In this document: piece after piece, positions 4,809 through 21,250 of the stretch
Position numbering within the stretch: the first letter of the stretch is position 1
Layout of the letters: every line of letters begins with the position of its first letter
Assembly: GCA_903852325.1 (NCBI GenBank)
Contig: CAINQO010000035.1
Location: 34,117 to 98,116, forward strand
DNA: 64,000 nt
DNA from: Candidatus Omnitrophota bacterium
GTDB lineage: Bacteria > Omnitrophota > Gorgyraeia > Gygaellales > Profunditerraquicolaceae
Direction of reading: 5' to 3'
Made by a program: the position numbers and the translations under genes
Notes under the pieces: generated by a model
Seen by the model: the letters and a program-made list of their open reading frames with translations, nothing else
The model's database searches: none
Told to the model about the DNA's origin: nothing

Positions 4809-5678
4809 ATGGATAAATACATCGAAAAATTCGCCCGCTATCTGGAAATCGAGAAGAATTATTCTTTGCATACGATCATAAATTATAAATTGGACCTGCA
4901 GGGGTTCAATAAATTTGTTTCCGGGACCGAGCTGGAAAAGATCGATTACCTGACCTTGAGAAAATATCTGGCGGTCCTGAAAGAAAAAAATTTCGGTAAC
5001 CGCACCGTCGGGCGCAAGCTTTCCACCCTGCGCAGTTTTTTCCGTTTTCTTTGCCGGGAAGGCCATCTGAAGACCAACCCGATCCTGATGCTTTCCAGCC
5101 CCAAACTGGATAAACGCCTGCCTTCTTTTATGACCGAGGATGAGGTTTACCGGTTGATCGAATCAGCTTTCGCTAAAACCGCCCGGGATGATCTGGGACT
5201 GCGTGACCGGGCGATCCTGGAAGTATTTTATTCCAGCGGCCTGCGTATCTCCGAACTGGTCGGTTTAAACCTGGAGGATATCGATTTTATCAGCGGTATC
5301 CTGAAGGTCAGGGGGAAAGGCAAAAAGGAGCGCATCGTCCCCATCGGAGAAACCGCGCTCTCGGCGGTAAGGAAATACCTGGATAAAAGGAAAAAACAAA
5401 CGGAGGCTTTATTCTTAAACAATCATTCCGTCCGGATCACCGCCCGCGGGGTGCGTTTTGTGCTGGCAAAATACCTTAAGTCCACCGGGATGAAGCCTGG
5501 GGTTTGCGCGCATACTTTCCGGCACTCTTTCGCTACGCATCTTTTAAATCGCGGGGCGGATTTGCGCACGGTGCAGGAGCTGCTGGGCCATGCAAACCTT
5601 TCTTCCACGCAGATTTATACGCATTTAACTACAGACAAATTAAAGAGCGTCTACGATAAGGCGCATCCGCACGCCTAG
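4809..5678 (+). CDS. xerC: Tyrosine recombinase XerC/XerD (CodV-like)
   Basis: C-terminal catalytic motif HTFRHSFATHLLNRGADLRTVQELLGHANLSSTQIYTH. 289 aa. Follows dprA-topA as CodV/XerC does in Firmicutes-like synteny. Confidence 0.85.
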   Translation: MDKYIEKFARYLEIEKNYSLHTIINYKLDLQGFNKFVSGTELEKIDYLTLRKYLAVLKEKNFGNRTVGRKLSTLRSFFRFLCREGHLKTNPILMLSSPKLDKRLPSFMTEDEVYRLIESAFAKTARDDLGLRDRAILEVFYSSGLRISELVGLNLEDIDFISGILKVRGKGKKERIVPIGETALSAVRKYLDKRKKQTEALFLNNHSVRITARGVRFVLAKYLKSTGMKPGVCAHTFRHSFATHLLNRGADLRTVQELLGHANLSSTQIYTHLTTDKLKSVYDKAHPHA

Positions 5679-5723
5679 AAGAACAGCAGTTAGCGGGTAG
5701 TGGTCAGCAGAAGAGGAAGGCCG

Positions 5724-6995: not shown

Positions 6996-7007
6996 GGGAG
7001 ACTACTT

Positions 7008-7478
7008 ATGGCCGCAGACATTTATATGACCCAGGAAGGTTATGAAAAACTGGTAGGTGAACTGGAATATTTAAAAACCGTCAAACGCCGCCAGCTGGCC
7101 AAAGCGATCGGAGAGGCCCGCGCTTACGGGGATATCAGCGAAAATGCGGAGTATGACGCGGCCAAGGACGCGCAAGCCCACAACGAAAAAGAAATTATGG
7201 AATTAGAGGATAAGCTTTCCCGGGTGCGCATCCTGGATAAAAATATTCCCAAAGACCAGGTTTTGATCGGGGCAAAAGTAAAATTATTGGATATGGATAC
7301 ACAGGAAGAGTTGGAGTATACTCTTGTGTCCGACCTGGAAGCGGATTATAACCAGGCCAAGATCTCCGTCAGTTCTCCGGTAGGTTCAGGTTTGCTGGGG
7401 CATAAAGTTAATGAGGTCGCCGAAATTAAAATCCCCGCGGGGATACTAAAGTATAAAATTATCGAAATAACCCGTTAA
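7008..7478 (+). CDS. greA: Transcription elongation factor GreA
   Basis: MTQEGYEKLVGELEYLKTVKRRQLAKAIGEARAYGDISENAEYDAAKDAQAHNEKEIMELEDKL is a canonical GreA coiled-coil plus FKBP-like C-domain. 156 aa. Confidence 0.95.
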   Translation: MAADIYMTQEGYEKLVGELEYLKTVKRRQLAKAIGEARAYGDISENAEYDAAKDAQAHNEKEIMELEDKLSRVRILDKNIPKDQVLIGAKVKLLDMDTQEELEYTLVSDLEADYNQAKISVSSPVGSGLLGHKVNEVAEIKIPAGILKYKIIEITR

Positions 7479-7497
7479 CTAAAAGGCTTGAGGAAAA

Positions 7498-8250
7498 ATG
7501 AAGATTAAAAAAATATTCAGTTGGCAGGTGGTGCTCGGGTTTAGTTTGATCATGCTTTCCGCCGCCGTTTACGGTATCCATTATCTGATTTTCCGGGATG
7601 CCCGGTATATTTTCAGTTATTTGATCAGCGATACCGCTTTTGTTTTCCTGGAAGTATTCCTGGTGACTATGGTCGTGCACAATCTCCTGGCGCAGCGGGA
7701 AAAACAGGCGCTGTTTAAAAAAATGAACATGGTGATCGGCGCTTTTTTCAGTCAGGTGGGCAAGGAGCTGGTTAAGTTTTGCGTGGCCTTCGACGCCCAG
7801 GGAGAAGAGTTGGCCGCTAAATTCATCGTGCGCAACGAATGGACGGCCAAGCAATTTAAAGACCTGCAGAAGGAGATTTCCGGTTTTTCCTGTGCGGTTG
7901 ACTGCCATAAAGGGGACCTGGAAGGCTTGAAACTATTTTTGGTAAAAAACCGGGGTTTTCTCCTGGCACTTTTGGAGAACCAGAACCTCCTGGAGCACGA
8001 GTCCTTTACCGACCTGCTTTGGGCGGTTTTTCATCTTACGGAAGAACTGGAAGGCAGGCAAACCCTGCAGGGGCTTGATCCGGCGGACTATAAACATCTT
8101 AACGGGGACATCCAGCGGGCTTACCGGCAATTGATCCGCCAGTGGCTCCTGTATATGGAGCATCTTAAGGCGGATTATCCGTATTTGTTTTCCCTGGCGA
8201 TGCGGACCAATCCTTTCGACCGTAAGGCGACGATCCAGGTGCGCGCGTAA
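7498..8250 (+). CDS. Hypothetical membrane protein (2 N-terminal TM helices plus cytoplasmic domain)
   Basis: 250-aa ORF with hydrophobic segments VVLGFSLIMLSAAVYGIHYLIF and FVFLEVFLVTMVVHNLL. No recognisable family motif. Confidence 0.55.
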   Translation: MKIKKIFSWQVVLGFSLIMLSAAVYGIHYLIFRDARYIFSYLISDTAFVFLEVFLVTMVVHNLLAQREKQALFKKMNMVIGAFFSQVGKELVKFCVAFDAQGEELAAKFIVRNEWTAKQFKDLQKEISGFSCAVDCHKGDLEGLKLFLVKNRGFLLALLENQNLLEHESFTDLLWAVFHLTEELEGRQTLQGLDPADYKHLNGDIQRAYRQLIRQWLLYMEHLKADYPYLFSLAMRTNPFDRKATIQVRA

Positions 8251-8253
8251 TTA

Positions 8254-8421
8254 ATGGAATATAAGATCGGGCATTTAAAAGTCGAAATTTTTAAGATCAA
8301 AAACCGGGAAGGTTTCGCCGCGGTTTGTTACGATCATCTTACGGAGGGCAAAACCGTCCAGGAAGCTTACCAGCGGATGGAAAAAGCGCTGCGGCGCAGC
8401 AGTAAAAAGGAAAATGTTTAG
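8254..8421 (+). CDS. Small UPF0150/HicB-like protein (55 aa), below the ORF-track size cut-off
   Basis: Manual translation MEYKIGHLKVEIFKIKNREGFAAVCYDHLTEGKTVQEAYQRMEKALRRSSKKENV. The block GFAAVCYDHLTEGKTVQEAYQRMEKAL matches the UPF0150/HicB-like pattern (G..A.vP.LPGc...G.T.EEA..n.kEA). No HicA partner was seen. Confidence 0.4.
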   Translation: MEYKIGHLKVEIFKIKNREGFAAVCYDHLTEGKTVQEAYQRMEKALRRSSKKENV

Positions 8422-8426
8422 TTTAG

Positions 8427-9344
8427 ATGAAAATTAAATACTGGTTTTTGCTTTCCCGGGTCCCGTTTTTAAGCGTCTTGGTCGCTCCGTATATTTTAGG
8501 TTCCCTTCTGGCCGGGCGCGCTTGCGGGATCTTTAATCTTCCGGTTTTTATCTTCGGATTATCCGGGGCAGTCCTGGTGCAGCTGGTCGCCCACTACAGC
8601 GGGGAAGTGCATGACCTGGCGGAGGACCGCCTGAGCGTGGTATTAGAAAAAAATTTCTTCAGCGGCGGGAGCGGGGTGCTGGTTGAGAACCGCCTTGTCC
8701 CTAAAAATGTAATAATTTTAAACCGGAGTTTTTTATTCCTGGCAGTGGCCGTGGGATTGATCCTGCAGGGTTATTTCCGGACGGGAAGCCTGACCTTGTG
8801 GCTGGGGATGACGGGAATATTCTGCGCTTATTTTTATTCCACCCCTCCGCTGCGCTTGGTCAGCCGGGGAATCGGGGAGCTGCTTATTGCTTACGCTTTC
8901 GGCTGGCTTTCGGTAAATGCCGGGTTTTATCTGCAAGCGGGGAGGTTCGCTATGTTGGGCACCTGGATCTCTATCCCGGTTGCCTGCAGCGTCGCCAATA
9001 TAATCCTGATCAATGAATTTCCGGATTATCTGGCGGATAAGCAGTGTTTAAAGAAGAATATGCTGGTGCGTATCGGTAAAGAGAACGGGTCGCGGGTTTA
9101 CGCGGCTTTAGCGGTGACCGGGGCGCTGGCCTTTATTTTTTCTTTGGCTAAAGGCGTGCCGCTTCAGACGGGGATTTTTTATCTTCCGGTTTTGTTTCTT
9201 TCATTAGGCCTGGCCTACCGGATGCTTAAGGGAGGATACCGGGAGCGGGTTGCGCTGGAAAAAATGTGCGGCCTGACTATCCTGGTAAACCTGGGGACGA
9301 CTTTAAGTTATCTGCTGGGATTATTATTCCGGTATAAATTTTAG
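8427..9344 (+). CDS. UbiA-family aromatic prenyltransferase (MenA-like)
   Basis: Polytopic membrane protein, 305 aa, with the YSTPPLRL motif characteristic of the UbiA/MenA superfamily. Confidence 0.7.
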   Translation: MKIKYWFLLSRVPFLSVLVAPYILGSLLAGRACGIFNLPVFIFGLSGAVLVQLVAHYSGEVHDLAEDRLSVVLEKNFFSGGSGVLVENRLVPKNVIILNRSFLFLAVAVGLILQGYFRTGSLTLWLGMTGIFCAYFYSTPPLRLVSRGIGELLIAYAFGWLSVNAGFYLQAGRFAMLGTWISIPVACSVANIILINEFPDYLADKQCLKKNMLVRIGKENGSRVYAALAVTGALAFIFSLAKGVPLQTGIFYLPVLFLSLGLAYRMLKGGYRERVALEKMCGLTILVNLGTTLSYLLGLLFRYKF

Positions 9345-9356
9345 GAGGAGATTAAA

Positions 9357-9734
9357 ATGTATCAGGTGGAGATTACCCATGATCAGGAGATGGCGTTTAC
9401 GGCCAGGGCCGGGGAAGCGCAGCTGGTGATCGACGCGCAGGGGAAAGGATTTACTCCGCTGGATGCGCTTTTTGCCGGATTAGGCAGCTGTGTCGGGGTG
9501 TATATTCGAAAATACGCCGTGGGCGCAAAATTAGATTTGAAAAATTTTAAGGTTAATGTTTCCGGGGAGCTTTCCGGATCCCCGCTTACTTTTAAACAGG
9601 TCAACGTGCAGATCGATCTTAACGGCTGTCAATTGGATGAACGCAGGCAAAAAGCGCTGTTGGAGTTTATAAAAAATTGCCCGGCGCATAATACTTTAAA
9701 AGGCAACCCAACAGTGGAGTTTAAAATATGCTAG
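9357..9734 (+). CDS. OsmC/Ohr family protein
   Basis: 125 aa with the paired cysteines and C-terminal CPAHNTL motif typical of OsmC-like peroxiredoxins. Confidence 0.8.
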   Translation: MYQVEITHDQEMAFTARAGEAQLVIDAQGKGFTPLDALFAGLGSCVGVYIRKYAVGAKLDLKNFKVNVSGELSGSPLTFKQVNVQIDLNGCQLDERRQKALLEFIKNCPAHNTLKGNPTVEFKIC

Positions 9735-10450
9735 AAATAAAATTAAGGCAATCCGGCAGTTGCATTATTTTGGATTTGTGCGGGCGCATCGACGTGGATT
9801 CGGCAAACCTGGTCGAGGTGGTCGGCCAGTGCGTGCGGGACGGTTACCCGGACCTGCTCTGCAACCTGGAGGAGGTTACCGGGATAGACTATATGGGGAT
9901 ATCGGTGATCGTCATCGCTTATAAAGAAGTAGTGAACCATCACGGGAGGATGAAATTCGTCAATATCCCGGCGCAATTACGCAGCGTATTCGCGGTTTCC
10001 GGAATGGACCGGGTAGTGGAGATTTACGGCAGCGAAGAGCTGGCGCTCAACAGTTTTAAGGAGGATAAAATTATCGAGGAAATCAAGCGGATGCAGCTGC
10101 GCCGCCGGTTCAAGCGCCTGCCGATCGATTTAAAAATAGAATTAAAATCCAAAACCGACTCTTCCGCCGCATGCCAGAAAGCGGACATCCTTAATTTAAG
10201 CGCGGTGGGGGCTTTTATTTTCGGTTGCGGCAAATTCAGGCTGAAGGATGAAGTGGTCATGAAAATGAAGCTCGGGCCCAAGCAGGAGGAGCTTCAGCTT
10301 GACGGGCGGGTGGTATGGGTACCGGATAAAGAGGTGCAGATCCACGAGTATCCGGGGATTGGAGTGGAGTTTTATGATATTTCTTCGGCCAATCAACAAA
10401 GGTTGATCGAGTTTATCGACCGGAACCTTTCCTCGCTGCCTCAGGAATGA
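9728..10450 (+). CDS. STAS domain (anti-sigma-factor-antagonist-like) fused to a C-terminal PilZ c-di-GMP-binding domain
   Basis: The N-terminal about 110 aa resemble SpoIIAA/STAS (ILDLCGRIDVDSANLVEVV...MGISVIVIAYKEVVNHHGRMKFVNIPAQLRSVFAVSGMDRVVEIY). The C-terminus has PilZ signatures QLRRRFKR (RxxxR) and DILNLSAVGAFIF (D/NxSxxG). Confidence 0.65.
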   Translation: MLEIKLRQSGSCIILDLCGRIDVDSANLVEVVGQCVRDGYPDLLCNLEEVTGIDYMGISVIVIAYKEVVNHHGRMKFVNIPAQLRSVFAVSGMDRVVEIYGSEELALNSFKEDKIIEEIKRMQLRRRFKRLPIDLKIELKSKTDSSAACQKADILNLSAVGAFIFGCGKFRLKDEVVMKMKLGPKQEELQLDGRVVWVPDKEVQIHEYPGIGVEFYDISSANQQRLIEFIDRNLSSLPQE

Positions 10451-10462
10451 TCCTAAAAAAAG

Positions 10463-11119
10463 ATGAAGAAATTAAAAGTAAGGCCTAAGGCGGTTATCTT
10501 TGACCTGGATGGAGTGATCGTTGATTCGATGCCGTATCACTTCATCGCCTGGTATGAAGCGCTTCGCCCCTGGGGAGTGCGCATCAGTTGTTTTGAGGTT
10601 TACGCGCAGGAGGGGGAACGCTGGCAGGAAACCCTAAAAGGCCTGCTTAAGCGTAACCGGATTAAGCCGGAGCGCAAGGTTTTAGAGGCTATTTTTGCCG
10701 CCCGGCAAAAGATCTTTAAGCGTTATTTTAAACGCTTTATCTTCCGGGGCGCCTACGAGCTGCTCCGGGACCTGAAAAAACAGGGTTTTTTATTGGGGCT
10801 GGTCACCGGCAGCCCGATGGAAGAGGTAAGGAAGATCCTGCCCGCCGGGGTGCTTAAACTTTTTGCCGCCACGGTCGCCGGAAATCAGGTCAAGAAAGGC
10901 AAGCCGCATCCGGAACCATATCTTAAAGCCGCCGCCGGCTTAGGCCTGGCGCCGCGGGACTGCCTGGTGATTGAAAATGCCCCTTTCGGCATTACCTCTG
11001 CCAGGCAGGCAGGAATGCCTTGCATTGCTGTTTCTACCAGCCTTCCCAAAGAATACCTGGCCGGAGCCGATTTTACGATCGAAAACCTGGGCCAGATCCA
11101 AGGATTGATCCCGCTTTAA
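10463..11119 (+). CDS. HAD-IA family hydrolase (beta-phosphoglucomutase-like)
   Basis: Motif I VIFDLDGVIVDS, motif II LVTGS, C-terminal motif IV IENAPFGITSARQAGM. 218 aa. Confidence 0.85.
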   Translation: MKKLKVRPKAVIFDLDGVIVDSMPYHFIAWYEALRPWGVRISCFEVYAQEGERWQETLKGLLKRNRIKPERKVLEAIFAARQKIFKRYFKRFIFRGAYELLRDLKKQGFLLGLVTGSPMEEVRKILPAGVLKLFAATVAGNQVKKGKPHPEPYLKAAAGLGLAPRDCLVIENAPFGITSARQAGMPCIAVSTSLPKEYLAGADFTIENLGQIQGLIPL

Positions 11120-11223
11120 TCAAAGGATTTTTTAACTTTTGCCGTCTCTTGAAATAAATACTTCCCAGTGGTTTATTTTTACATATCTCATTGCTAATCT
11201 TAGGTTTTAGTTTTGAAAATCAT

Positions 11224-11252
11224 TTGCCTGGCGAATGGCGGTGTGGTATTAT
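11224..11252 (+). promoter_or_regulatory. Candidate sigma70-type promoter for the UPF0016 gene
   Basis: TTGCCT, 17 nt, TATTAT, sited about 35 nt upstream of the ATG at 11289. Confidence 0.4.
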
Positions 11253-11288
11253 AGATGTTTAAATAAACCGATTTTATAGAGAGGAGCA

Positions 11289-11567
11289 ATGCCGATGGAT
11301 TGGAAAGTGTTTGCGGCTACATTTGCAGCGGTATTTTGCGCAGAATTAGCGGATAAAACTCAAATGGTCGGTATCGGCATGGCGGCTAAAACGGGGAAAC
11401 CTATTTCGGTTTGGGCCGGGTCAGTGGCCGCCTATGTTATCGTCACTGTAATTTCGGTGTTTTTAGGTTCACTGGCGGCCAGATTCATCCGGCCGGAAAT
11501 GATCCGCTATGTCGGCGCTTCATTATTCATTTTGATCGGCGCGCTTATGCTGCTTAAAATACTTTAA
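11289..11567 (+). CDS. UPF0016 (GDT1/TMEM165-like) single-repeat membrane protein
   Basis: 92 aa with three TM segments and the family signature ELADKTQ (E-x-G/A-D-K-T). A single repeat implies a dimeric cation transporter. Confidence 0.7.
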   Translation: MPMDWKVFAATFAAVFCAELADKTQMVGIGMAAKTGKPISVWAGSVAAYVIVTVISVFLGSLAARFIRPEMIRYVGASLFILIGALMLLKIL

Positions 11568-11573
11568 AAGCCT

Positions 11574-12635
11574 ATGTCCTTAGCCAGGGAGTATCTTTAT
11601 AATCTGGTTACCGGTAAGACCAAGGGTCCCGGAGCCGCATTTTTAAGAGGGATTTTATTTATTCTTTCCCTGATTTACGGTTTTATTGTCATTCTCCTTG
11701 CCGGTTTCTATAAAATAAGGCGCCGGCGCCTTCCGGCCAAGGTGGTCAGTGTCGGCAATATCACCCTGGGCGGGACAGGAAAAACTACTTTAGTCCAATA
11801 TTTATCGGTTAAATTGAGCGCCGCAGGCAATAAAGTGGCTGTCTTGACCCGGGGGTATAAACGTAACGCGCAGCTTGAGGGGACCAGGGGGATGGGGGAT
11901 GAGCCGTTAATGCTCGCGGAAAAACTTCCGCAAATTCCGGTGATCGTGAACAAGGACCGGCTAAAAGCCGCCAGGCAGGCGGTCAGGGATTATGCTTGCG
12001 ATACGCTGATCCTGGATGACGGGATGCAGCAGTGGAAACTGGATAAAGACCTGGAGATCGTGACCATCGACGCGGCAAATCCTTTCGGCAATTTACGCCT
12101 GCTTCCGGCGGGGTTTTTGCGTGAGCCGCTCTCTGCCCTTAAGCGTGCGGATATTTTTGTCATTACCCAAACTTCCTGCGTCCGGGATCCAGGCGCTTTA
12201 GCGGATAAGCTTACGCGGATCAACCCCCGGGCGCTGATCGTCGAATCCAACCACGCGCCAAAAGGGTTAAGTCCCCTGGAGGCCCCGGATAAAGAATTAG
12301 GGTTGCCGGCGCTTAAAGGTAAGACCGCGGCGGTATTTTCCGGGATCGGTAACCCGGAGGGTTTTGAAAAATGCCTGCGCGGGCTGGGCATTAAATATAT
12401 GAAAATTTACCGGTTCCCGGACCATCATGCTTATACCCAAAATGATATCCTGGAAATCCTCCAGGCAGCCCGGAAGGATAAGCTGGAGATGGTGATCACG
12501 ACGCAAAAAGACGCGGTGAAACTCCGCAAAACAGGGATCAAGGATTCCGGGATACTGGTCCTGGAGATAAAACTAGAGATCACTAAAAATGAAGCAGAAT
12601 TTGATCGTCGATTACTGCGCTTACATTCTATTTAG
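11574..12635 (+). CDS. lpxK: Tetraacyldisaccharide 4'-kinase
   Basis: N-terminal TM helix then P-loop VVSVGNITLGGTGKTT. 353 aa. Confidence 0.9.
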   Translation: MSLAREYLYNLVTGKTKGPGAAFLRGILFILSLIYGFIVILLAGFYKIRRRRLPAKVVSVGNITLGGTGKTTLVQYLSVKLSAAGNKVAVLTRGYKRNAQLEGTRGMGDEPLMLAEKLPQIPVIVNKDRLKAARQAVRDYACDTLILDDGMQQWKLDKDLEIVTIDAANPFGNLRLLPAGFLREPLSALKRADIFVITQTSCVRDPGALADKLTRINPRALIVESNHAPKGLSPLEAPDKELGLPALKGKTAAVFSGIGNPEGFEKCLRGLGIKYMKIYRFPDHHAYTQNDILEILQAARKDKLEMVITTQKDAVKLRKTGIKDSGILVLEIKLEITKNEAEFDRRLLRLHSI

Positions 12636-14592
12636 GGTAGTAAGTTTTTTTACTTATTTCCTCCCCTTGAATTTCAGCCTGTTCCTGGGCCGCCGGCTGG
12701 GGGACCTGGTATTTTTTTTAGACCGCAGGCACCGGGCGGTCGCTTACGCCAATATCCGCCGCACCGTCGCGGAAAAATTGGACACCGGGGCATGCGCCAG
12801 GATCGCGCGCAAAAGCTACCAGGCGTTCGGGCAAAATTTAATCGAGATTTCTTTTATTCCGCGCATCAATAAGCGGTATTTGCAGAAATATATCCGGATT
12901 GAAGATAAGGAATACGGCTATCAGGCTTTTGACCGGGGCAAAGGGGTAATTTTTTTGATCGTCCATGAAGGGAATTGGGAGCTTTCCAATATCATCATGG
13001 CAAATTTAGATGTGGCCTTTGTGTTGTTTGTCCGGGACCAGGGGTTACCCCGGTTAAACGCCCTGCTGAATAAATACCGGCTGGCCCATGGAGCTAAGAT
13101 CATGCATAAGGACGCCAGCCTCCGGCAGCTGATCGAAGTGCTTAAGAGTAACCAGTCCGTGGGGATGACCGTGGACCAGGGGGGGAAAATCGGGGTAGGG
13201 GTAAATTTCTTCGGCAAAGATGCCTCGATGTCTACGGGAGCGGTAAAGCTGGCGCTAAAATACGATTGCGCGATCATCCCTATTTTTTATACCCGGGTGA
13301 AAGGCCCCTATTCTAAAGTAATCTTAGACCAGGTTTTTACGGCTACCCGCACCGGGGATGAAGAAAAAGACCTCCGGGATAACCTGCAAAGACTGTTTGT
13401 CATTTATGAAAAATACCTGCGTAAATATCCGCATGAATTGCTCTGGACGTATAAGATTTATAAATACAGCCGGGAGCGGGATGTGCTGATCCTTAGCGAC
13501 GGCAGGACCGGCCACCTGCGCCAATGCGAGGCAATAGCGGAGTTGACCCGCCGGCAATTGGAGGAGCGGGGGATAAAAACGCACCTGGCGGTCCGGGAGA
13601 TAAAATTCCGCTCCAAGCCGCGCGCCTTTTTATTGGGTTTATTGGCGAAGTCCACCGGTAAATATGAATGCGGGGGGATTGGGGCGCGTTATTTACGCCA
13701 TGCCTTGACCCCGGAAAGCTGGGAAAGCCTGATGGGGGTCAACCCGGAGATCGTGATTTCCGCCGGCGGCTCGGCCGCGGCGGTAAATTATCTTTTGAGC
13801 GTTGAAACCCAGTCTAAGTCCATCGTCTTGATGCGGCCGGGCTTGCTGAGTTTGAATAAATTTAACTTAGCGCTTATTCCCCGGCATGACTGGCCAGAGG
13901 GCCGTGGTTTGCCATTTTTTTGGCAAAGCCATCTGGGAGGCGGCAAGCTCCCGGCTAAAAATACCATAATCACCGAAGGGGCGCTTAATTTAATTGATTC
14001 CCGGTACCTGATCCAAAAAGCTAAAAGTTTTTCCGGATCAGGATTATTGCGGGGGCCTTTGCATGACCCCTGTATCGGGGTATTGCTCGGCGGAAACAGC
14101 AGGGATTTTTCTTTAGAGCCGCAGGCTATCCGGGAATTGGCGCAGGAGGTCAAAAAAGCCGCCCGGGAGTTAAACGCGGATATCCTGATCACCACCTCCC
14201 GGCGCACTCCGGAAACCGTAGAGTCGCTGCTCAAGGATGAATTTACCGCAGAGCCGCGCTGCAAGCTGTTGGTGATCGCCCGGGAAAACAGTAATCCGGA
14301 TGTGGTGGGAGCGATATTGGGATCAAGCCGGGTTTTGATCAGCTCTCCGGAAAGTATTTCGATGATCTCTGAATCCGTAGCCGCGGAAAAATACGTGGTC
14401 GTGTTTCAGGCGGGCAAGCTGGGCGCAAAGCACACGCGTTTCCTGAAATATTATCAGGATAAGGGTTATATTTATTTAGAACAGATCCAAGGCGTTTCCC
14501 GGAGGATCAGTCAGTTGCTCAAAGACAGGCCGGCGGTGAATTTTCCGCAGGACAATTTAAAAGTCAGCGAGGGGTTAAAGAGGATATTGTAA
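12589..14592 (+). CDS. Bifunctional protein: LpxL/HtrB-family lipid A late acyltransferase (N-terminus) fused to an ELM1/DUF1022-like predicted GT-B glycosyltransferase-fold domain (C-terminus)
   Basis: The N-terminal 300 aa carry a TM anchor plus the H-x4-E catalytic dyad (IVHEGNWELS) and align with HtrB. The C-terminal 360 aa begin VLILSDGRTGHLRQCEAIAE, resembling the ELM1-family signature (V.SDGK.GHENQ). Overlaps the lpxK 3' end by 47 nt. Confidence 0.7.
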   Translation: MKQNLIVDYCAYILFRVVSFFTYFLPLNFSLFLGRRLGDLVFFLDRRHRAVAYANIRRTVAEKLDTGACARIARKSYQAFGQNLIEISFIPRINKRYLQKYIRIEDKEYGYQAFDRGKGVIFLIVHEGNWELSNIIMANLDVAFVLFVRDQGLPRLNALLNKYRLAHGAKIMHKDASLRQLIEVLKSNQSVGMTVDQGGKIGVGVNFFGKDASMSTGAVKLALKYDCAIIPIFYTRVKGPYSKVILDQVFTATRTGDEEKDLRDNLQRLFVIYEKYLRKYPHELLWTYKIYKYSRERDVLILSDGRTGHLRQCEAIAELTRRQLEERGIKTHLAVREIKFRSKPRAFLLGLLAKSTGKYECGGIGARYLRHALTPESWESLMGVNPEIVISAGGSAAAVNYLLSVETQSKSIVLMRPGLLSLNKFNLALIPRHDWPEGRGLPFFWQSHLGGGKLPAKNTIITEGALNLIDSRYLIQKAKSFSGSGLLRGPLHDPCIGVLLGGNSRDFSLEPQAIRELAQEVKKAARELNADILITTSRRTPETVESLLKDEFTAEPRCKLLVIARENSNPDVVGAILGSSRVLISSPESISMISESVAAEKYVVVFQAGKLGAKHTRFLKYYQDKGYIYLEQIQGVSRRISQLLKDRPAVNFPQDNLKVSEGLKRIL

Positions 14593-14597
14593 TTAAA

Positions 14598-14628
14598 AAG
14601 GAAGGGCGGATTGAATCCCGCCCTTCCT
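14598..14628 (+). promoter_or_regulatory. Perfect 11-bp hairpin AAGGAAGGGCGG-ATTGAAT-CCGCCCTTCCT (SD-mimic/anti-SD), a short-loop variant of the repeated leader element
   Basis: Lies 6 nt after the lpxL-fusion stop and 32 nt before the ATG at 14661, whose own SD is AAGGAAGGGTTGGG. The motif AAGGAAGGGCGG(G)AT(T)GAA recurs at 53550. Confidence 0.5.
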
Positions 14629-14660
14629 CAGCGATTTAAGTTAGCAAAGGAAGGGTTGGG

Positions 14661-16754
14661 ATGAAGATTTTACAAATTTTGCCGGAACTTAATGTCGGAG
14701 GGGTAGAGACCGGGACGGTGGACCTTTCCCGTCATCTGGTGCGCCTGGGGCATAAATCGGTGGTGGTTTCCGCCGGCGGAGCGCTGGTCAAAGAACTGGA
14801 GGAGGCGGGGGCTAAACACTATCAACTGCCGGTAAATAAAAAATCCATCATCTCCATGATCAAGCTGGTTCCGGAGTTAGCCGAAATTATCAAACGGGAA
14901 GGGATCGAGATCGTACATGCCCGCTCAAGGGCGCCGGCCTGGATCGCTTATTTTGCCTGCCGAAGGACCCAGGCGGTATTCGTTACCACTTGCCACGGTT
15001 ATTACCAGAAACATCTTTTTAGCGCGGTAATGGGCTGGGGCAAAAAAGTGATCGTTTTAAGCAACGTGATCGCCCGGCACATGATCGAGGATTTTGCCGT
15101 TCCCCATGAGCGGATCAAGCTGGTGCCGCGCAGCGTGGATCTGGAGAAATTTAAATACCGGGACCCTAAAAACAAAAGGAAAGAAGATTTTAATGTCGGT
15201 ATCATCGGCCGGATCACCCCGCTAAAAGGGCATTTGCATTTTATCAAAGCCATGGCACGCATTTCCCGCTCCGTCCCGCGCCTGAAGATCTGGATCGTCG
15301 GCGATGCTCCGGCTTCCAAGGAAGCTTATAAAGAAGAACTGCAAATTTTAGTGCGCCGCCTGGGTTTATGGCATTGCACGGAATTTCTGGGCACGCAGCG
15401 GGATATTCCGGGAATATTGGAGAACCTGGATCTGGTGGTTTTAGCCACGACTACTCAGGAGGCCTTCGGCAGGGTGGTTGTAGAGGCGCAGGCCTGCGGG
15501 GTACCGGTGGTGGCGACCAGGGTCGGAGGGGTGATCGATATTATCGAGGACGGCAAGAACGGGCTCCTGGTCCCTCCGGCGGATTCCAAAAGCATGTCGG
15601 AGGCGGTGATGCGTATTTTTAAGGACGCGGAATTCGCCCGCATCCTGGCGGAAAATGCCTACGCTAAGGTCAAAGAAAAATATAATGTGGAATTGATGGT
15701 CAAAAATACTTTAGAGGTTTACCGGGAGGCGCTGAATAATTTTAAGATCCTGGTGATCAAGCTCAGTTCTTTAGGGGACGTGATCCTTTCTACGGCGGCC
15801 TTAAGGGCGATCCGGGAAAAATTTCCCCAAAGTAAATACAAGATAAGTTTTCTGGTCGGGGAAGAATCCAAGGACCTGCTTTTGCGCTGCCCGTATATCG
15901 ACGAACTTCTGGTTTGCGACTTAAAAAATAAGGACCGCGGCCCCTTCGGTTTGCTGAGGATGGGTCAGCTTTTACGGAAGAAAAATTTCGACTCGGTGAT
16001 CGATCTGCAAAATAGCCGTTCCAGCCACCTGCTGGCTTATCTGAGCGGTTGCGTCCACCGCTACGGATATGACAATAAAAAGTTTTCCTTTTTGCTCAAC
16101 TACCGGATCCAGGATCAAAAAACCCCGCTGGACCCGGTAACCCACCAGTTCAGGATCCTTAAGCTGCTGGGGATCGACCTGTTGAATAATGCCCTTGAGC
16201 TTTGGCCTTCCGCGGAAGACCGGGAGAAGGTGGAGGAACTTTTTAATTCCCAATGGTTGAGCCAGGTGCAGAAAGTGGTGGGGATCAATATCAGCGCTTC
16301 CTCCAGATGGGAGACAAAACTCTGGCCGCTGGAATACGTGATCACCCTGTGTGAAGAACTGGAAGCCAGGGATATCCGGGTGGTCATTACCGGTAAGCAA
16401 GAGGATCAGCCGCGCGCCAACATGCTCGTCGATTCGCTTAAGAACACCAAGGTGATCAATGCCTGCGGCAAGACCAATATCAACGAATTGGCGGTGTTGA
16501 TCAAAAAATGCAATGTGTTCATCTCCGCCGATTCTTCTCCTTTGCATATCGCTTCCGCGGTGGGCACTCCTTTTGTCGCTTTGTTCGGCCCGACGGATCC
16601 TTTGCGGCACCTTCCCCCCGGGGCTAATTACGCGGTGATCGATAAGAAATTGAATTGCAGCCCTTGTTATAAAAATAGATGCCGCAGTAAGCGCTGCATG
16701 ATCGAGATCGATCCGGCGCAGGTTTTTGAAGCGGTAATGAAGTTATTGAAATAA
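14661..16754 (+). CDS. Bifunctional LPS-core glycosyltransferase: GT4 (RfaG-like) N-domain fused to GT9 (heptosyltransferase-like) C-domain
   Basis: N-terminal half has the GT4 E-x7-E motif region EAFGRVVVEAQACGVPVVATRVGGVIDIIEDGKNGLLVPP. C-terminal half has the GT9 pattern ILVIKLSSLGDVILSTAALRAIREKFP...ISADSSPLHIASAVGTPFVALFGPTDP. 697 aa. Confidence 0.8.
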   Translation: MKILQILPELNVGGVETGTVDLSRHLVRLGHKSVVVSAGGALVKELEEAGAKHYQLPVNKKSIISMIKLVPELAEIIKREGIEIVHARSRAPAWIAYFACRRTQAVFVTTCHGYYQKHLFSAVMGWGKKVIVLSNVIARHMIEDFAVPHERIKLVPRSVDLEKFKYRDPKNKRKEDFNVGIIGRITPLKGHLHFIKAMARISRSVPRLKIWIVGDAPASKEAYKEELQILVRRLGLWHCTEFLGTQRDIPGILENLDLVVLATTTQEAFGRVVVEAQACGVPVVATRVGGVIDIIEDGKNGLLVPPADSKSMSEAVMRIFKDAEFARILAENAYAKVKEKYNVELMVKNTLEVYREALNNFKILVIKLSSLGDVILSTAALRAIREKFPQSKYKISFLVGEESKDLLLRCPYIDELLVCDLKNKDRGPFGLLRMGQLLRKKNFDSVIDLQNSRSSHLLAYLSGCVHRYGYDNKKFSFLLNYRIQDQKTPLDPVTHQFRILKLLGIDLLNNALELWPSAEDREKVEELFNSQWLSQVQKVVGINISASSRWETKLWPLEYVITLCEELEARDIRVVITGKQEDQPRANMLVDSLKNTKVINACGKTNINELAVLIKKCNVFISADSSPLHIASAVGTPFVALFGPTDPLRHLPPGANYAVIDKKLNCSPCYKNRCRSKRCMIEIDPAQVFEAVMKLLK

Positions 16755-16819
16755 GCAATATACCTGGCGCTTAGTGGTATTGCGCCAGTACGCGCCACGT
16801 GGCGCGAGGGGCGGGATGA

Positions 16820-16894
16820 CCCCGCACCATCTTCTAATTCACGCTTTAAGTCCTAAGGTTTAATAACAATTAACTATAAGGATGGTGCGGGGTG
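16820..16894 (+). promoter_or_regulatory. Leader element copy A (anti-SD arm CCCCGCACCATCTTCT paired with SD/start arm AAGGATGGTGCGGGGTG) upstream of the GT4 gene
   Basis: The 5' arm at 16820..16835 is complementary to 16878..16894, which holds the RBS and the GTG start at 16892. An AT insertion is matched in both arms. The CGCGCCACGTGGCGCG palindrome lies upstream. Confidence 0.6.
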
Positions 16895-17992
16895 CGGATT
16901 TTATTTTTAGCCAATCATCTTAATGTCGGGGGGATCTCCAGTTACTTGCTGACCTTGGGTAGCGGATTGAAAGAAAAAGGGCATGAGGTTTATTTGGCCT
17001 CCGGGGGCGGTGAATTAGAGGAAAAATTCCGGCAGGCCGGAATAATCCTGATCAATGTCCCCTTGAAAACAAAAAGCGAGATCAGTCCGAAGATCCTGAT
17101 CAGTTACTGGAAATTAAAAAAGGCCGCTGCCGGTTTGCGGATCGAGCTTATTCATTCGCACAGCCGGACCACCCAGGTTTTGGGATGCTGGCTGGGCCGC
17201 TCCCTGGGCAGGCCGCATATTTTTACCTGCCACGGTTTCTTTAAACCGAAACTGCCGCGCAAGGTTTTCGGCTGCTGGGGCCAAAGGGTAATTGCTATCA
17301 GCTCCCAGGTCAAAGAGCACTTGACCGCGGATTTTAAATTCAGCGAAAATAAGATTAGCGTGATCCATAACGGCATCGACACGCAAAAATTCGGGGATTT
17401 TTCGGGAAGGGACCGCTTGCGCAGCAGTTTAGGGGTCGCCCCGGATGGTTTTTTGATCGGGATCATCGCCCGCCTCTCCGATGTGAAGGGGCATCTTTAC
17501 CTTATCCGGGCGATGCCGGAGATTTTAAAAAAATTCCCCGGGACCAAATTAGCGATAATCGGTCAGGGTAAGACCGAAGGCTCTTTGGTCAAAGAAACAG
17601 GGAATTTAGGGTTAGAGGGCAATATTTTATTTGTCCCGGAAGCAAAAGATACCCGGGAATGGCTTTGCGCCATGGATGTTTTTGCCATGCCTTCGCTGCA
17701 GGAAGGCTTGGGGCTGGCTTTGATGGAAGCGATGGCTCAGGGTTTAGCCGTGGCCGGATCGGCGGTAGGGGGGATCAAAACCCTGGTCCAGGATAAAATT
17801 ACCGGACTGCTGGTCCCGGCGCGGGATGCGGGGGCGCTGGCGCAGGCGATCATCTCTTTGCTTGGGGATCCGGATTTACGCCGTAATTTAGGGGATCAGG
17901 CGCGCGAATTTATCGCCGCTAATTTTTCTAAAAAAGAAATGGTGGAAAAGACCGAAGGCCTTTACCGGCAGGTTTTAAATCCCAATGAGTGA
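16892..17992 (+). CDS. GT4-family glycosyltransferase (GTB fold)
   Basis: MRILFLANHLNVGGISSYLL... with E-x7-E region LQEGLGLALMEAMAQGLAVAGSAVGGIKTLVQDKITGLLVP. GTG start. 366 aa. Confidence 0.85.
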   Translation: MRILFLANHLNVGGISSYLLTLGSGLKEKGHEVYLASGGGELEEKFRQAGIILINVPLKTKSEISPKILISYWKLKKAAAGLRIELIHSHSRTTQVLGCWLGRSLGRPHIFTCHGFFKPKLPRKVFGCWGQRVIAISSQVKEHLTADFKFSENKISVIHNGIDTQKFGDFSGRDRLRSSLGVAPDGFLIGIIARLSDVKGHLYLIRAMPEILKKFPGTKLAIIGQGKTEGSLVKETGNLGLEGNILFVPEAKDTREWLCAMDVFAMPSLQEGLGLALMEAMAQGLAVAGSAVGGIKTLVQDKITGLLVPARDAGALAQAIISLLGDPDLRRNLGDQAREFIAANFSKKEMVEKTEGLYRQVLNPNE

Positions 17993-19037
17993 AAAAACAG
18001 AAAATCCGCGGATTTTGATCTTTAATGTTAACTGGCTGGGGGATGTTTTATTCTCATCCGCCGCCATCAGGAATATCCGCAGGAATTTCCCGAAAAGTTA
18101 CATTGCCTGCGTGATCCCTAGCCGCTGTTACCCGGTGCTCAAGGATAACCCGTATCTGGACGAGGTGATCATTTTCGACGAGCATGACCGGCACAAAGGG
18201 ATACTGGAGAAAATGAATTTTGTCAGTCTCCTGAAGAAAAAGCAGTTCGATAAAGTGTTTTTACTGCACCGCTCCTTCAGCCGGGCGCTCATCTGCCGTC
18301 TGGCCGGGATAAAGCAGCTTATCGGCCACTATACCAAAAAACGGGCCTTCCTTTTGACGCACAAAATTTTTCCTCCGAAAAAAGATTCCCTGCATCGCAT
18401 CGATTATTATCTGGATATTATTGAAAAGTCCGGTTTAAGGGTGGAGGACCGGTACCTGGATTTTTTTGTCAGCCATGAAGACCAGGAGCATGTCGACAGC
18501 TTTTTTAAGAAAAATTCCCTTTCCGATAAGGATCTGGTCATTGCCCTTAATCCCGGAGGCAATTGGGTGCCGAAACGCTGGCCGCCGGAATACTGGGCGG
18601 CCCTGGCGGATAAATTGATCAGCCAAACCGGCGCCAAGGTAATTATTACCGGCAGCATTTCGGATTTGTTGCTGGCCGGCCAGATAAAAGAGAGGATGCG
18701 CGAAACGCCTTTGACCGGCTGCGGGGTTTTTAATTTAAAACAGTTAGGGGCGCTGGCCAAGAAAGTGGACCTGTTCATTACCGCCGATACCGGGCCGCTG
18801 CATATTGCCAATGCGGTAGGGGCAAAAAAAATAATCGCTATTTTCGGCCCTACCGCGCAAAAGGTCACCGGGCCGTTCCCTTCGACCAATGTGGTCATCC
18901 TGCAAAAAGATACCGGCTGCCGGATCCCCTGTTATAAGGTGAACTGCCCGGACAGCCACTGCATGCGGGCGGTTACGCCGGATGATGTCCTGGCTCAGGT
19001 CAAGCAAATATTTAATCCCCGGCGGGAAACCCCGTAG
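17985..19037 (+). CDS. GT9-family glycosyltransferase (LPS heptosyltransferase-like)
   Basis: ILIFNVNWLGDVLFSSAAIRNIRRNFP, NPGGNWVPKRWPPEYW, ITADTGPLHIANAVGAKKIIAIFGPT. 350 aa. Confidence 0.85.
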   Translation: MSEKTENPRILIFNVNWLGDVLFSSAAIRNIRRNFPKSYIACVIPSRCYPVLKDNPYLDEVIIFDEHDRHKGILEKMNFVSLLKKKQFDKVFLLHRSFSRALICRLAGIKQLIGHYTKKRAFLLTHKIFPPKKDSLHRIDYYLDIIEKSGLRVEDRYLDFFVSHEDQEHVDSFFKKNSLSDKDLVIALNPGGNWVPKRWPPEYWAALADKLISQTGAKVIITGSISDLLLAGQIKERMRETPLTGCGVFNLKQLGALAKKVDLFITADTGPLHIANAVGAKKIIAIFGPTAQKVTGPFPSTNVVILQKDTGCRIPCYKVNCPDSHCMRAVTPDDVLAQVKQIFNPRRETP

Positions 19038-19076
19038 GTTTACCTGGGGATAAACGGGGATTTCCTGATGGGGAGG

Positions 19077-19106
19077 AAGCCCCGGACTTTAGTCTAAAGG
19101 GGCTTC
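19077..19106 (+). promoter_or_regulatory. Perfect 8-bp hairpin GAAGCCCC-N14-GGGGCTTC whose 3' strand contains the SD (AAGGGG) of the following gene
   Basis: Ends 5 nt before the ATG at 19112. Conceptually the same SD-sequestering arrangement as the leader elements. Confidence 0.35.
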
Positions 19107-19111
19107 ACAAA

Positions 19112-21127
19112 ATGAAAATCCTTTTTGTCACCTTAAGCAATATCGGCGATTGCATCCTCACCTTGCCGGTGCTGGATGGGCTGCGGGAAAAATACCCGCA
19201 GGCCAAAATCACCTGCTTAGTCCCTCCGGGGCCCAAAGAAATCTTTACCGCTAACCCTGCCGTGGCCCGGGTGTTTATTTTTGATAAACACGCCAAATTG
19301 CAAGAGAAGGTCAAATTATTTTTTTCCTTAAGCCGGGAGGAGTTTGACCTGGTGATCGATCTGCGGAATAGTTTTTTCGGCGCTTTCTTACCGGCGAAAA
19401 AATGGAACTTGTTCAGCGGCCCCTTGCGCCGGATACCCGGAAAGATCAAGCACATGAAAGACCGGCATTTATACCGGGCATTAGGCCGGGATTATCCTCT
19501 CTTAAGGAAATACCGTTCTTTTAATATTAAGCCGCAGGATGATGATTATATCGAAAAAATATTGGGCCCGGCCGCAGGGAAGAAACTGATCGTGGTTGCC
19601 CCCGGGGCAAAAAGCCGGTCCAAGTGCTGGGCTAAGGAAAATTTCCGCCTGCTCTGCGGCCGGCTGGCGGAAGAGGGGAATCAAATCGTGCTGACCGGGG
19701 ATAAAGCGGATCAGGAGGCCTGTGCTTATATCCGCCGGGAGGGAATAATCGATCTGTGCGGCCGGACCGACCTGGCGCAATTAGGGGCCCTGCTTAAACG
19801 GGCGCGGCTTTTGATCAGCAATGACAGCGCGGCAATGCACCTGGCCAGTTACCTGAACGTGCCGGTGGCGGCGATTTTCGGGCCGACGGATGAAAAAAAA
19901 TACGGCCCCTGGTCGGATAAAAATATCGTGATCAAAAAAGAGGTTTTTTGCCGCCCCTGCGCCAAAGCCCAATGCCGCTCCCTGAGCCTTGATTGCCTGG
20001 AGGCGATCAAGCCGGAGGATGTCCTGCGGCAGATCGAGCCGTTGCTTAAAGAACAAAAGGATGCCGCACTTTCTTTGCAAAATGAAATCCGAAACGGATT
20101 CCGCCGGATCCTGGTGGTGCGCACCGACCGGTTAGGGGACGTGATTTTATCCACCCCGGCGGTAAAAGCCTTAAGGCAGGCGTTTCCGCAAAGCTATATC
20201 GCGATGCTGGTTTCTTCCTACGCTAAAGACGCGGTGGAAGGTAACCCGGATTTAGATGCGGTGCTCGTTTTCGATAAAGAAGCCAAAGATAAGGGCGTGT
20301 TCGGCAGTTTAAAGTTGGCGGGTGAGCTTAAACAAAAGCAGTTTGATCTGGCGGTGATCCTGCATCCCACGGTGCGGGTGCATTTATTGATGTTTATCGC
20401 CGGGATTCCCCGGCGCGTAGGTTATGACCGCAAATTTGATTTTTTACTCACCGACAGGATCCCGCACGTAAAACAAGAAGGGCAAAAACACGAATCCGAA
20501 TATACCCTGGATTTAATCCGCTACCTGGGGGTCGCTCCGCAAAGCCCCGCATTGTTTGTGCCGGTAAAACAGGAGTCGGAAAAGTGGGTGGAAGCTTTAT
20601 TCCGGCAAGAAGGGATCGGCCCCAAAGATAAATTGCTGGTGATCCATCCGGCGGCAAGCTGTATTTCTAAAATTTGGCCGGCAGAAAGGTTTGCCCTGGT
20701 CGCCGACAGGCTGGCGCAACAATACGGTTTTAAAGTCTGCATTATTGCCGGGCCGAAAGATATAAGTAAAGCGGAACTGGTGAGCAGGAGTATGCAGGTT
20801 CCTGCTCTGAACCTGGCGGCAAAAACAACGGTCAGTCAGCTGGCCAGTTTAATCAAAAGGGCGCAGCTATTTATTTCCACGGATTCCGGACCGGTGCATA
20901 TTGCTTCCGCTTTTTCTATCCCCCAGGTTACGATTTTCGGGCGCAGCCAGGCAGGGCTTAGCCCAGTGCGTTGGGGCCCGCAAGGGGAGAGGATCAGGAT
21001 TTTACATAAAGAAGTCGGCTGTACGGCTTGCCTGGCGCATGACTGCCTTCGGGAATTTGCCTGTATTAAATCCATTACGGTTGAGGATGTACTTGAAGCA
21101 GCGGAGGAACTGATTAGTGGATTCTAG
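19112..21127 (+). CDS. Tandem double GT9 (two heptosyltransferase-like domains in one polypeptide)
   Basis: Two full repeats. Each begins I(L)xVxLxxxGDxILxxP (MKILFVTLSNIGDCILTLPVLDGL and ILVVRTDRLGDVILSTPAVKAL) and ends with the ...DSxxxHLA/IASA...IFGPT core. 671 aa. Confidence 0.8.
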   Translation: MKILFVTLSNIGDCILTLPVLDGLREKYPQAKITCLVPPGPKEIFTANPAVARVFIFDKHAKLQEKVKLFFSLSREEFDLVIDLRNSFFGAFLPAKKWNLFSGPLRRIPGKIKHMKDRHLYRALGRDYPLLRKYRSFNIKPQDDDYIEKILGPAAGKKLIVVAPGAKSRSKCWAKENFRLLCGRLAEEGNQIVLTGDKADQEACAYIRREGIIDLCGRTDLAQLGALLKRARLLISNDSAAMHLASYLNVPVAAIFGPTDEKKYGPWSDKNIVIKKEVFCRPCAKAQCRSLSLDCLEAIKPEDVLRQIEPLLKEQKDAALSLQNEIRNGFRRILVVRTDRLGDVILSTPAVKALRQAFPQSYIAMLVSSYAKDAVEGNPDLDAVLVFDKEAKDKGVFGSLKLAGELKQKQFDLAVILHPTVRVHLLMFIAGIPRRVGYDRKFDFLLTDRIPHVKQEGQKHESEYTLDLIRYLGVAPQSPALFVPVKQESEKWVEALFRQEGIGPKDKLLVIHPAASCISKIWPAERFALVADRLAQQYGFKVCIIAGPKDISKAELVSRSMQVPALNLAAKTTVSQLASLIKRAQLFISTDSGPVHIASAFSIPQVTIFGRSQAGLSPVRWGPQGERIRILHKEVGCTACLAHDCLREFACIKSITVEDVLEAAEELISGF

Positions 21128-21250
21128 GTTGAGGAGTGGGGATTGGGTCGAGTAGTGGGATAGGTAGTGCGGGTGAGTTGTGGGGTAGACCAACTACTAA
21201 TCCACACAACCTAACGCACTACTTTACCTAACCCACACTACTCACCCTAT
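21128..21250. repeat. G-rich/C-rich imperfect long palindrome (GTAGTGGG / CCCACTAC / ACTACTAAT words); related copy at 58419
   Basis: GGATTGGGTCGAGTAGTGGGATAGGTAGTGCGGGTGAGTTGTGGGGTAG is followed by the near-complementary CTAATCCACACAACCTAACGCACTACTTTACCTAACCCACACTACTCACCC. Immediately 3' of the GT9-GT9 gene. Confidence 0.5.

Follow-up and report, generated by a model that had tools for sequence, protein, structure and literature searches.

The stretch of DNA analysed here, called the window, comprises 64,000 nucleotides (nt) of contig CAINQO010000035.1 (positions 34,117 to 98,116 of the forward strand, assembly GCA_903852325.1) from a Candidatus Omnitrophota bacterium. At 12589..14592 (+) of the window, within a cluster of lipopolysaccharide (LPS) genes, lies one open reading frame (ORF) which runs from ATG to TAA and codes for a protein of 667 amino acids (aa). 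The ORF itself, its two Pfam domains and its homologues identify it as an LpxL-type acyltransferase fused to a KdoT/ELM1-like glycosyltransferase of the GT-B type. Residues 13-292 matched PF03279 (Lip_A_acyltrans, profile positions 17-294 of 295) with an E-value of 5e-37 and 128.1 bits for a cut-off of 22.3, and residues 308-628 matched PF06258 (Mito_fiss_Elm1, formerly DUF1022) with an E-value of 1.6e-44 and 152.7 bits for a cut-off of 27. The two domains adjoin without a linker. The gene overlaps the preceding lpxK by exactly 47 nt, and the same 47-nt overlap was found in the related loci L001-L004 and L019.

The junction between the two domains (aa 288-303, YKIYKYSRERDVLILS, 13450..13497, +) is conserved and gap-free. 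In the AlphaFold2 (AF2) model of the full-length protein, the last helix of the acyltransferase (281-292) is followed by about three linking residues and then by the first beta-strand of the GT-B domain (296-303). When 25 homologues were aligned, aa 278-315 were highly conserved without any gap and contained invariant residues, K292 and Y293 among them. Stops are present in both alternative frames at the junction, and the reading frame itself contains neither frameshift nor stop. The identical 667-aa protein was found on 17 contigs from independent assemblies, some of them 612-656 kb long, and the N-terminus (MKQNLIADY...) recurs in related loci. A search of 5.8 billion proteins gave 721 relatives; all 120 of those listed are full-length two-domain fusions with 58-72% identity, and the named sources among these 120 homologue clusters are Candidatus Omnitrophota metagenome-assembled genomes (MAGs). 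Since the identical protein is present on 17 contigs and at least 120 full-length homologue clusters share its architecture, the LpxL-ELM1 fusion is real and conserved and is not an artefact. These results are in agreement with a first-pass annotation, made from the sequence alone, which had described a single 667-aa ORF overlapping lpxK by 47 nt, with an LpxL/HtrB-type acyltransferase (transmembrane anchor and H-x4-E motif, seen here as helix aa 5-31 and HEGNWE) and a C-terminal domain ascribed to PF06258; the frameshift or sequencing error that it had envisaged at the junction was not found.

The idea that a frameshift or an assembly chimera joined two separate genes finds a parallel in one related MAG (locus L019), where gene calling splits the region into two overlapping ORFs of 243 aa and 392 aa, but this break sits within the acyltransferase domain and not at the domain boundary, and an artefactual origin was rejected as practically impossible in view of the 17 independently assembled contigs, the diverged homologue clusters which keep the fusion, the conserved junction and the stops in the other frames. 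The two L019 ORFs (L019:7289-9179) overlap by 20 nt. As the split lies inside the acyltransferase domain, it is probably due to a frameshift or a pseudogene in the L019 assembly, and this case indicates that some 'standalone ELM1' entries of the databases are artefacts.

The N-terminal domain (aa 1-293, 12589..13467, +) was assigned to the lipid A late (secondary) acyltransferases on the basis of PF03279, of structural comparison by Foldseek and of a profile match in the PDB. When the full-length AF2 model (mean predicted local distance difference test, pLDDT, 79; predicted template modelling score, pTM, 0.79) was compared with the PDB, its N-terminal half matched LpxM of Acinetobacter baumannii (5KNK/5KN7, E-values of 5e-12 to 1e-11, target TM-score of 0.63-0.65) and also PatA, and the PDB profile search retrieved 5KN7 at an E-value of 1.9e-30. 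The hydrophobic helix of aa 5-31 (12601..12681, +) contains the highest 19-residue Kyte-Doolittle windows of the protein (about 1.5) and coincides with AF2 helices 5-22 and 27-44; from sequence and model, and by comparison with LpxL and LpxM, it is presumed to anchor the protein in the inner membrane. The catalytic dyad motif H-x4-E is found as HEGNWE (aa 126-131, 12964..12981, +; H126 and E131) and is conserved in the homologues, residues H126, E127, G128, W130 and E131 being identical in all 25 aligned fusions. The N-terminal hydrophobic anchor, the dyad, the fold and the position beside lpxK are thus those of LpxL, LpxM and LpxP (PF03279; A. baumannii LpxM 5KN7/5KNK), from which the fusion differs by a 372-aa C-terminal glycosyltransferase and by scores below all NCBIfam equivalog cut-offs. 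Among the scanned + strand ORFs of the window of at least 150 aa, neither a second late acyltransferase nor another lpx gene was found.

The C-terminal domain (aa 296-667, 13474..14589, +) opens with VLILSDGRTGHLRQ, aa 299-318 reading ...VLILSDGRTGHLRQCEAIAE, and was identified as a KdoT/ELM1-like GT-B glycosyltransferase from PF06258, its AF2 model, its GT-B matches and its homology to KdoT. Modelled alone, it gave a pLDDT of 93.1 and a pTM of 0.90, and its top Foldseek matches in the PDB were all GT-B folds: uridine diphosphate N-acetylglucosamine 2-epimerases, MshA, MurG and TreT (E-values of about 1e-8 to 1e-6), with a Rickettsia glycosyltransferase also among the matches. The C-terminal half of the full-length model likewise matched GT-B proteins. 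The PDB profile search revealed no solved PF06258 structure. PF04413, the family of WaaA (glycosyltransferase family 30, GT30), had no match in the fusion protein, and hhalign between the C-terminal module and the WaaA of the window gave a probability of 0.14%, that is, no detectable sequence relation. The module carries no hydrophobic anchor segment of its own.

The bacterial PF06258 proteins with a documented function come from studies on KdoT. In A. baumannii, the ELM1-like protein A1S_2903/GtrOC1 (KdoT) is required, on genetic evidence, for the core beyond the two 3-deoxy-D-manno-octulosonic acid (Kdo) residues of Kdo2 (VanOtterloo et al., mBio 2024, PMC10936431). The purified enzyme transfers Kdo from cytidine monophosphate-Kdo (CMP-Kdo) to Kdo2-lipid IVA, as a third Kdo, and not to lipid IVA (VanOtterloo et al., JBC 2025, PMC12856342). 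In the latter study, the kdoT mutant was complemented by homologues from four other Acinetobacter species and from Rickettsia rickettsii, and the SRRT motif, which the authors proposed to contact the Kdo carboxylate of the donor, was required, R180 being critical and R179 dispensable. KdoT and GnaT, a glycosyltransferase of family 4 (GT4) which follows it, were mutually dependent in vivo (PMC12856342). GtrOC1/14/19/22 had already been listed as PF06258 members in the A. baumannii typing literature. The GT-B fold announced by the first-pass annotation holds; LpxB/GT19, a comparator that it named, was neither the closest structural nor the closest sequence match of the domain. Its description of PF06258 as an orphan family of unknown bacterial function is outdated by the two KdoT papers. 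It had also drawn a link between ELM1 and the glycosylation of lipid A or Kdo; the direction was right, but the KdoT experiments came earlier and the fusion is therefore an independent genomic support for a known function and not the first clue to it.

For the comparison with KdoT, three peptides (MHIVYVSDGKAGHRSQALG, AVIPEHDGIP and ILTTSRRTPAE) were translated from the published mutagenesis primers, and the Acinetobacter genes were retrieved from ten genomes with a primer-derived 22-mer. The 294-aa A. nosocomialis protein of strain NIPH 2119 (L007:4289-5170), whose 3' end matches the published cloning primer, was taken as reference KdoT, the assayed strain being M2. This protein scored 195 bits on PF06258. 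By BLASTP, the domain of the window aligned with it at an E-value of 3e-13 (22% identity over 302 columns), and hhalign with a profile of 35 diverse Omnitrophota-type domains gave a probability of 99.65% and an E-value of 4.9e-25 over 263 columns. All six mutagenised KdoT residues were matched, D8/H13 by D304/H309, H109/D110 by H433/D434 and R179/R180 by R538/R539.

The conservation of these motifs was followed in the 25 fusion homologues, in the 35 diverse domains and in a wider sample. For the latter, the C-terminal domain alone was searched against 1.84 billion representatives clustered at 50% identity, which gave 1580 matches at an E-value of at most 0.001, 181 of them at 1e-30 or below, and the best 150 of the 1580 were retained. 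The SDGRTGHLRQ motif (13495..13524, +) corresponds, from primers and alignment, to KdoT residues 7-16 (SDGKAGHRSQ), and D304, G308 and H309 are invariant in the 25 fusions. The IPRHD motif (13876..13890, +), identified in the same way, is the counterpart of IPEHD in KdoT; H433 and D434 are both invariant in the 25 fusions, the histidine is invariant and the aspartate nearly so in the 35 diverse domains, and both are nearly invariant in the 150 representatives. Directly after the HD motif comes a variable and probably disordered loop (aa 435-457, WPEGRGLPFFWQSHLGGGKLPAK, 13891..13959, +), recognized from the homologue alignment, from the pLDDT (below 50 for aa 437-454 in the full-length model) and from a gap in the KdoT alignment, the loop being absent from Acinetobacter KdoT. 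Its length varies from a few to about 45 residues among homologues, often with WPEGRGL/ASDSQSH-like repeats, and it lies close to the predicted acceptor side of the cleft. Further downstream, TTSRRTP (14191..14211, +) carries the SRRT motif (S537-R538-R539-T540). In the 150 representatives, its serine and second arginine are invariant and its first arginine and threonine nearly invariant, which mirrors the KdoT mutagenesis, where R180 was critical and R179 was not. Finally, SPESISMISE (14344..14373, +), in the C-terminal Rossmann half, aligns with EDSVSMIYE of KdoT and may take part in donor binding; S, M and S of this motif do not vary in the 25 fusions, the 35 diverse domains or the 150 representatives. 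The residues invariant across the 150 representatives are a G-G pair, the S and second R of SRRT, and the S..M of SxSMxSE.

Upstream of the fusion are found waaA (kdtA), a canonical Kdo transferase of GT30 (5700..6995, +; PF04413, E-value of 5e-60), and lpxK, the tetraacyldisaccharide 4'-kinase (11574..12635, +; PF02606, E-value of 4.5e-84; TIGR00682, 220 bits for a cut-off of 92). Downstream of the fusion come a 697-aa fusion of GT4 with a heptosyltransferase-like domain of family 9 (GT9) (14661..16754, +; PF13439/PF00534 and PF01075), a GT4 gene (16892..17992, +), a GT9 gene (17985..19037, +) and a tandem GT9-GT9 of 671 aa (19112..21127, +; two PF01075 stretches). They are followed by a PfkB kinase (22315..23328) and by four genes for the supply of CMP-Kdo, named here from their Pfam families and their context: KdsB (23330..24082, +; PF02348), KdsA (24069..24881, +; PF00793), KdsD with SIS and CBS domains (24900..25868, +; PF01380 and PF00571) and a KdsC-like HAD phosphatase (25975..26517, +; PF08282). 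A 298-aa LptC-LptA/OstA-like fusion (26507..27403) and LptB (27384..28106) come next. Four GT9 domains and LptC, LptA and LptB thus share one co-directional LPS cluster with WaaA, LpxK and the Kds genes, and the gene order of this cluster is kept in related Omnitrophota contigs.

Two neighbours are constant. WaaA is found upstream in every related locus whose sequence reaches that far, and its presence in the cluster indicates that the ELM1-like module supplements WaaA and does not replace it. The GT4-GT9 gene is the next gene after the module in every inspected locus (the window, L001-L004 and L015-L019), in LpxL fusions, LpxK fusions and standalone forms alike; all three forms therefore have a WaaA in the vicinity and a GT4-GT9 as immediate downstream neighbour. 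By analogy, this suggests that the ELM1-like module and GT4-GT9 could be conserved functional partners, much as KdoT and GnaT are. The downstream GT4 has a common N-terminus and the EX7E motif with primer-derived GnaT fragments, both features being generic to GT4.

Several other ORFs of the window were observed. In L015, separate GT9 genes occupy the slot of the tandem GT9-GT9 of the window. A 322-aa ORF (21277..22245), which several related LPS clusters also have between their GT9 genes and their PfkB kinase, gave a weak deoxyhypusine-synthase-like signal (PF01916, E-value of 5e-07, no single stretch passing). A 581-aa ORF (32824..34569) had no Pfam match. A 250-aa ORF (7498..8250) had no match in the Pfam copy searched and carries the precomputed annotation MJ1433_N/C (PF27246/PF27232). 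All ORFs of the window (1..64000) assigned by Pfam are on the + strand, the minus-strand ORFs all overlapping them, and every 500-nt bin of the 8-20 kb region profiled has a positive GC skew. The 64-kb window looks like one long co-directional stretch.

The architecture of the relatives was examined by classifying the 150 best representatives with local hidden Markov models built from the LpxL half and the LpxK of the window. The full LpxL+ELM1 fusion accounted for 89 of them, and 19 others were LpxL+ELM1 proteins truncated at the N-terminus by contig ends. LpxK+ELM1 fusions were found in 3, whole ELM1 domains alone in 17, and 22 were fragments. With 108 of the best 150 representatives against 3 for LpxK, LpxL-ELM1 is by far the commonest and the deepest ELM1 fusion. 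Its members descend to about 30% identity to the query, which shows that this is an old architecture. A divergent example was found in 'bacterium Unc6', and the LpxL-ELM1 fusion is apparently confined to Omnitrophota-type bacteria.

The LpxK-ELM1 fusions (about 700 aa, about 29 clusters: P0217, P0148 and P0278-P0304) also belong to Omnitrophota. They occupy the same locus as LpxL-ELM1 with a different partner. In L015:10001-12136 and L016:10001-12166, which include the complete 1.55-Mb genome CP070837.1, no LpxL module was found at that position, and the gene order is WaaA upstream, LpxK-ELM1, GT4-GT9, GT4, GT9s, PfkB, KdsB, KdsA and KdsD. The standalone ELM1 genes (one in a MAG labelled Deltaproteobacteria, one on a metagenome contig) come after WaaA and two dehydrogenase genes and directly before GT4-GT9. 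In a rough neighbour-joining tree of 186 domains, rooted with Acinetobacter KdoT as sole outgroup, the LpxK-fused domains formed one clade nested among the LpxL-fused ones and the standalone forms were scattered. As far as this crude tree allows, the simplest reading would be that the LpxL-ELM1 fusion is old and that its LpxL module was later lost in one lineage.

Other fusions were met in Omnitrophota. WaaA-LpxK fusions (PF04413 and PF02606, about 650-830 aa) are found in P0308, P0312, P0314, P0339, P0343, P0359, P0379, P0381 and P0383, and in P0313 and P0315 LpxK is apparently fused, in an odd pairing, with a poly(A) polymerase/CCA-adding enzyme and an HD domain. WaaA-LpxK, LpxK-ELM1, GT4-GT9, GT9-GT9 and LptC-LptA resemble the present fusion in that enzymes acting one after the other in the making of lipid A and the core tend to be joined in one polypeptide.

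On balance, we favour the view that the fusion is a membrane-anchored bifunctional enzyme which acylates Kdo2-lipid IVA and also glycosylates it, probably with Kdo. LpxK would supply lipid IVA, to which WaaA, whose gene lies 5.6 kb upstream, would attach the first Kdo residues. Both modules, carried by one polypeptide anchored in the inner membrane, would then act on the WaaA product at the cytoplasmic face of that membrane. The N-terminal LpxL/LpxM-type module, with its H126-x4-E131 dyad, would add a secondary acyl chain, and the KdoT-like module, judging from homology, would most likely use CMP-Kdo to place one more Kdo on Kdo2-lipid IVA or lipid A, with R539 of the SRRT motif holding the donor in position. 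Extension of the core would come next, through the GT4-GT9 protein, in the way that GnaT acts after KdoT in A. baumannii, and through the other glycosyltransferases. The fusion would thereby give an anchorless glycosyltransferase module a membrane anchor, beside an enzyme using the same lipid substrate. Both partners, LpxL and LpxK, are membrane-associated enzymes of the Raetz pathway which flank the WaaA step, and this fits a tethering of the module next to its lipid substrate. The architecture, conservation, KdoT homology, fold, motifs and gene context were observed, as set out above; which sugar is donated, where on the acceptor it is placed, which reaction comes first and whether substrate is channelled are what we infer.

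The likeness to KdoT consists of PF06258 membership, the GT-B fold, the motifs SDGxxGH, IPxHD, TTSRRTP and SxSMxxE, co-occurrence with WaaA and an adjoining GT4 glycosyltransferase domain. The Omnitrophota module has a covalent partner, an LpxL-type acyltransferase or, in a sister lineage, LpxK, whereas KdoT is a free 294-aa protein. Several points weigh against a bifunctional acyltransferase and Kdo transferase. The identity to the nearest validated KdoT is 22-26% and the C-terminal domain is about 78 aa longer than KdoT through three insertions, so that orthology to KdoT and the donor specificity are putative. The Omnitrophota locus has heptosyltransferase-like enzymes, of which Acinetobacter is devoid, and the linkage made may differ; heptose is normally attached at O5 of Kdo I, the position taken by KdoIII in Acinetobacter, and with heptosyltransferase-like GT9 domains in the cluster the linkage at least must differ. 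To our knowledge, no LPS structure has been described for any Omnitrophota. The full-length model is only moderately confident in its N-terminal half (pLDDT of about 55-85), and none of the 17 NCBIfam matches of the protein reached an equivalog cut-off (best NF006270, 124.6 bits for 248), so that the acyltransferase half belongs to the family and is not assignable to LpxL, LpxM or LpxP. The neighbour-joining tree behind the evolutionary reading is rough.

Some of these points would equally be expected of a diverged PF06258 paralogue whose donor sugar is not Kdo but, for instance, a hexuronic acid, a hexose or a heptose, or whose acceptor is another site on lipid A or in the inner core, and this possibility, although less probable than Kdo transfer, deserves serious consideration. 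The 22-26% identity and the three insertions, among which the variable loop after HD near the predicted acceptor cleft, are in its favour. WaaA enzymes can add one to four Kdo residues, a capacity that makes an extra Kdo transferase unnecessary. The specificity of PF06258 enzymes has furthermore been assayed only in Acinetobacter and for one Rickettsia homologue. On the other hand, the SRRT motif proposed to contact the Kdo carboxylate is conserved with its critical arginine invariant, the sole members characterised, which come from two proteobacterial classes, all complement the addition of KdoIII, and a complete CMP-Kdo pathway is encoded within the same cluster.

A related and rather unlikely alternative is that the module performs a glycosylation near lipid A or Kdo other than the addition of a third Kdo, coupled in cis to the secondary acylation. 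If so, in Omnitrophota only lipid A handled by this polypeptide would be passed to GT4-GT9 for core extension, the fusion would act as a checkpoint that ties the acylation of lipid A covalently to the building of the core, and the loss of LpxL in the LpxK-ELM1 lineage would mark a changed lipid A acylation.

A non-catalytic module, recruiting glycosyltransferases or other partners to the site of lipid A assembly, appears very improbable. We know of no enzymatic role for plant ELM1 (ELONGATED MITOCHONDRIA 1), the eponymous member of PF06258. It is described as an adaptor, not an enzyme, which recruits DRP3A to mitochondrial fission sites (Arimura 2008, as cited in PMC10936431), and the interdependence of KdoT and GnaT in A. 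baumannii as well as the GT4-GT9 gene always adjoining the module would suit such a scaffold. However, purified KdoT is catalytically active alone, and the invariant residues fall in the motifs of KdoT catalysis (SRR, HD, GG and SxSMxSE), as in an active site and unlike a binding surface. PF06258 thus unites a plant mitochondrial fission factor and a bacterial glycosyltransferase of Kdo-lipid A. Plants retain a mitochondrial lipid A-like pathway, and our literature search found no paper linking plant ELM1 with it.

Least probable of all, the module would replace WaaA as the primary Kdo transferase for lipid IVA, which would explain its place between lpxK and the core glycosyltransferases: the slot directly after lpxK is that of waaA in many genomes and the WaaA-LpxK fusions of some Omnitrophota parallel the LpxK-ELM1 fusions, but this substitution is largely refuted by the intact WaaA gene in the window and upstream in all related loci of sufficient length, those with LpxK-ELM1 among them, by the inability of KdoT to use lipid IVA in vitro (PMC12856342) and by the absence of sequence relation to WaaA (hhalign, 0.14%). 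The module and WaaA/KdtA (GT30, PF04413, mono- to tetra-functional) are alike in their GT-B fold, their presumed donor CMP-Kdo, the class of their lipid acceptor and their cluster; they differ in sequence, WaaA is encoded separately, and the KdoT-family enzymes do not act on lipid IVA.

Our literature search found no paper on the LpxL-ELM1 fusion itself or on LPS assembly in Omnitrophota. The proteins are already deposited, as 'ELM1/GtrOC1 family putative glycosyltransferase' at NCBI and as 'Kdo2-lipid IVA lauroyltransferase' at JGI. As each pipeline names one half only, reconstructions of Omnitrophota pathways would miss either the late acyltransferase or the glycosyltransferase. The fusion is a new architectural arrangement of known kinds of enzymes and no new kind of biology. 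For the family, its value is that of a Rosetta stone, since a module of the bacterial ELM1/DUF1022 type is fused to two enzymes of the Raetz pathway which flank the WaaA step, as would suit an enzyme working on intermediates of Kdo-lipid A, and this supports the function recently assigned to these proteins. The fusion also provides a ready-made construct to probe the coupling between acylation and KdoT-type glycosylation. KdoT-like enzymes are extended by this work from Proteobacteria to a deep and uncultivated phylum, in which the module is nearly always tethered to the membrane by its fusion partner and always paired with GT4-GT9, suggesting that a split addition of Kdo or of inner-core sugars may be widespread.

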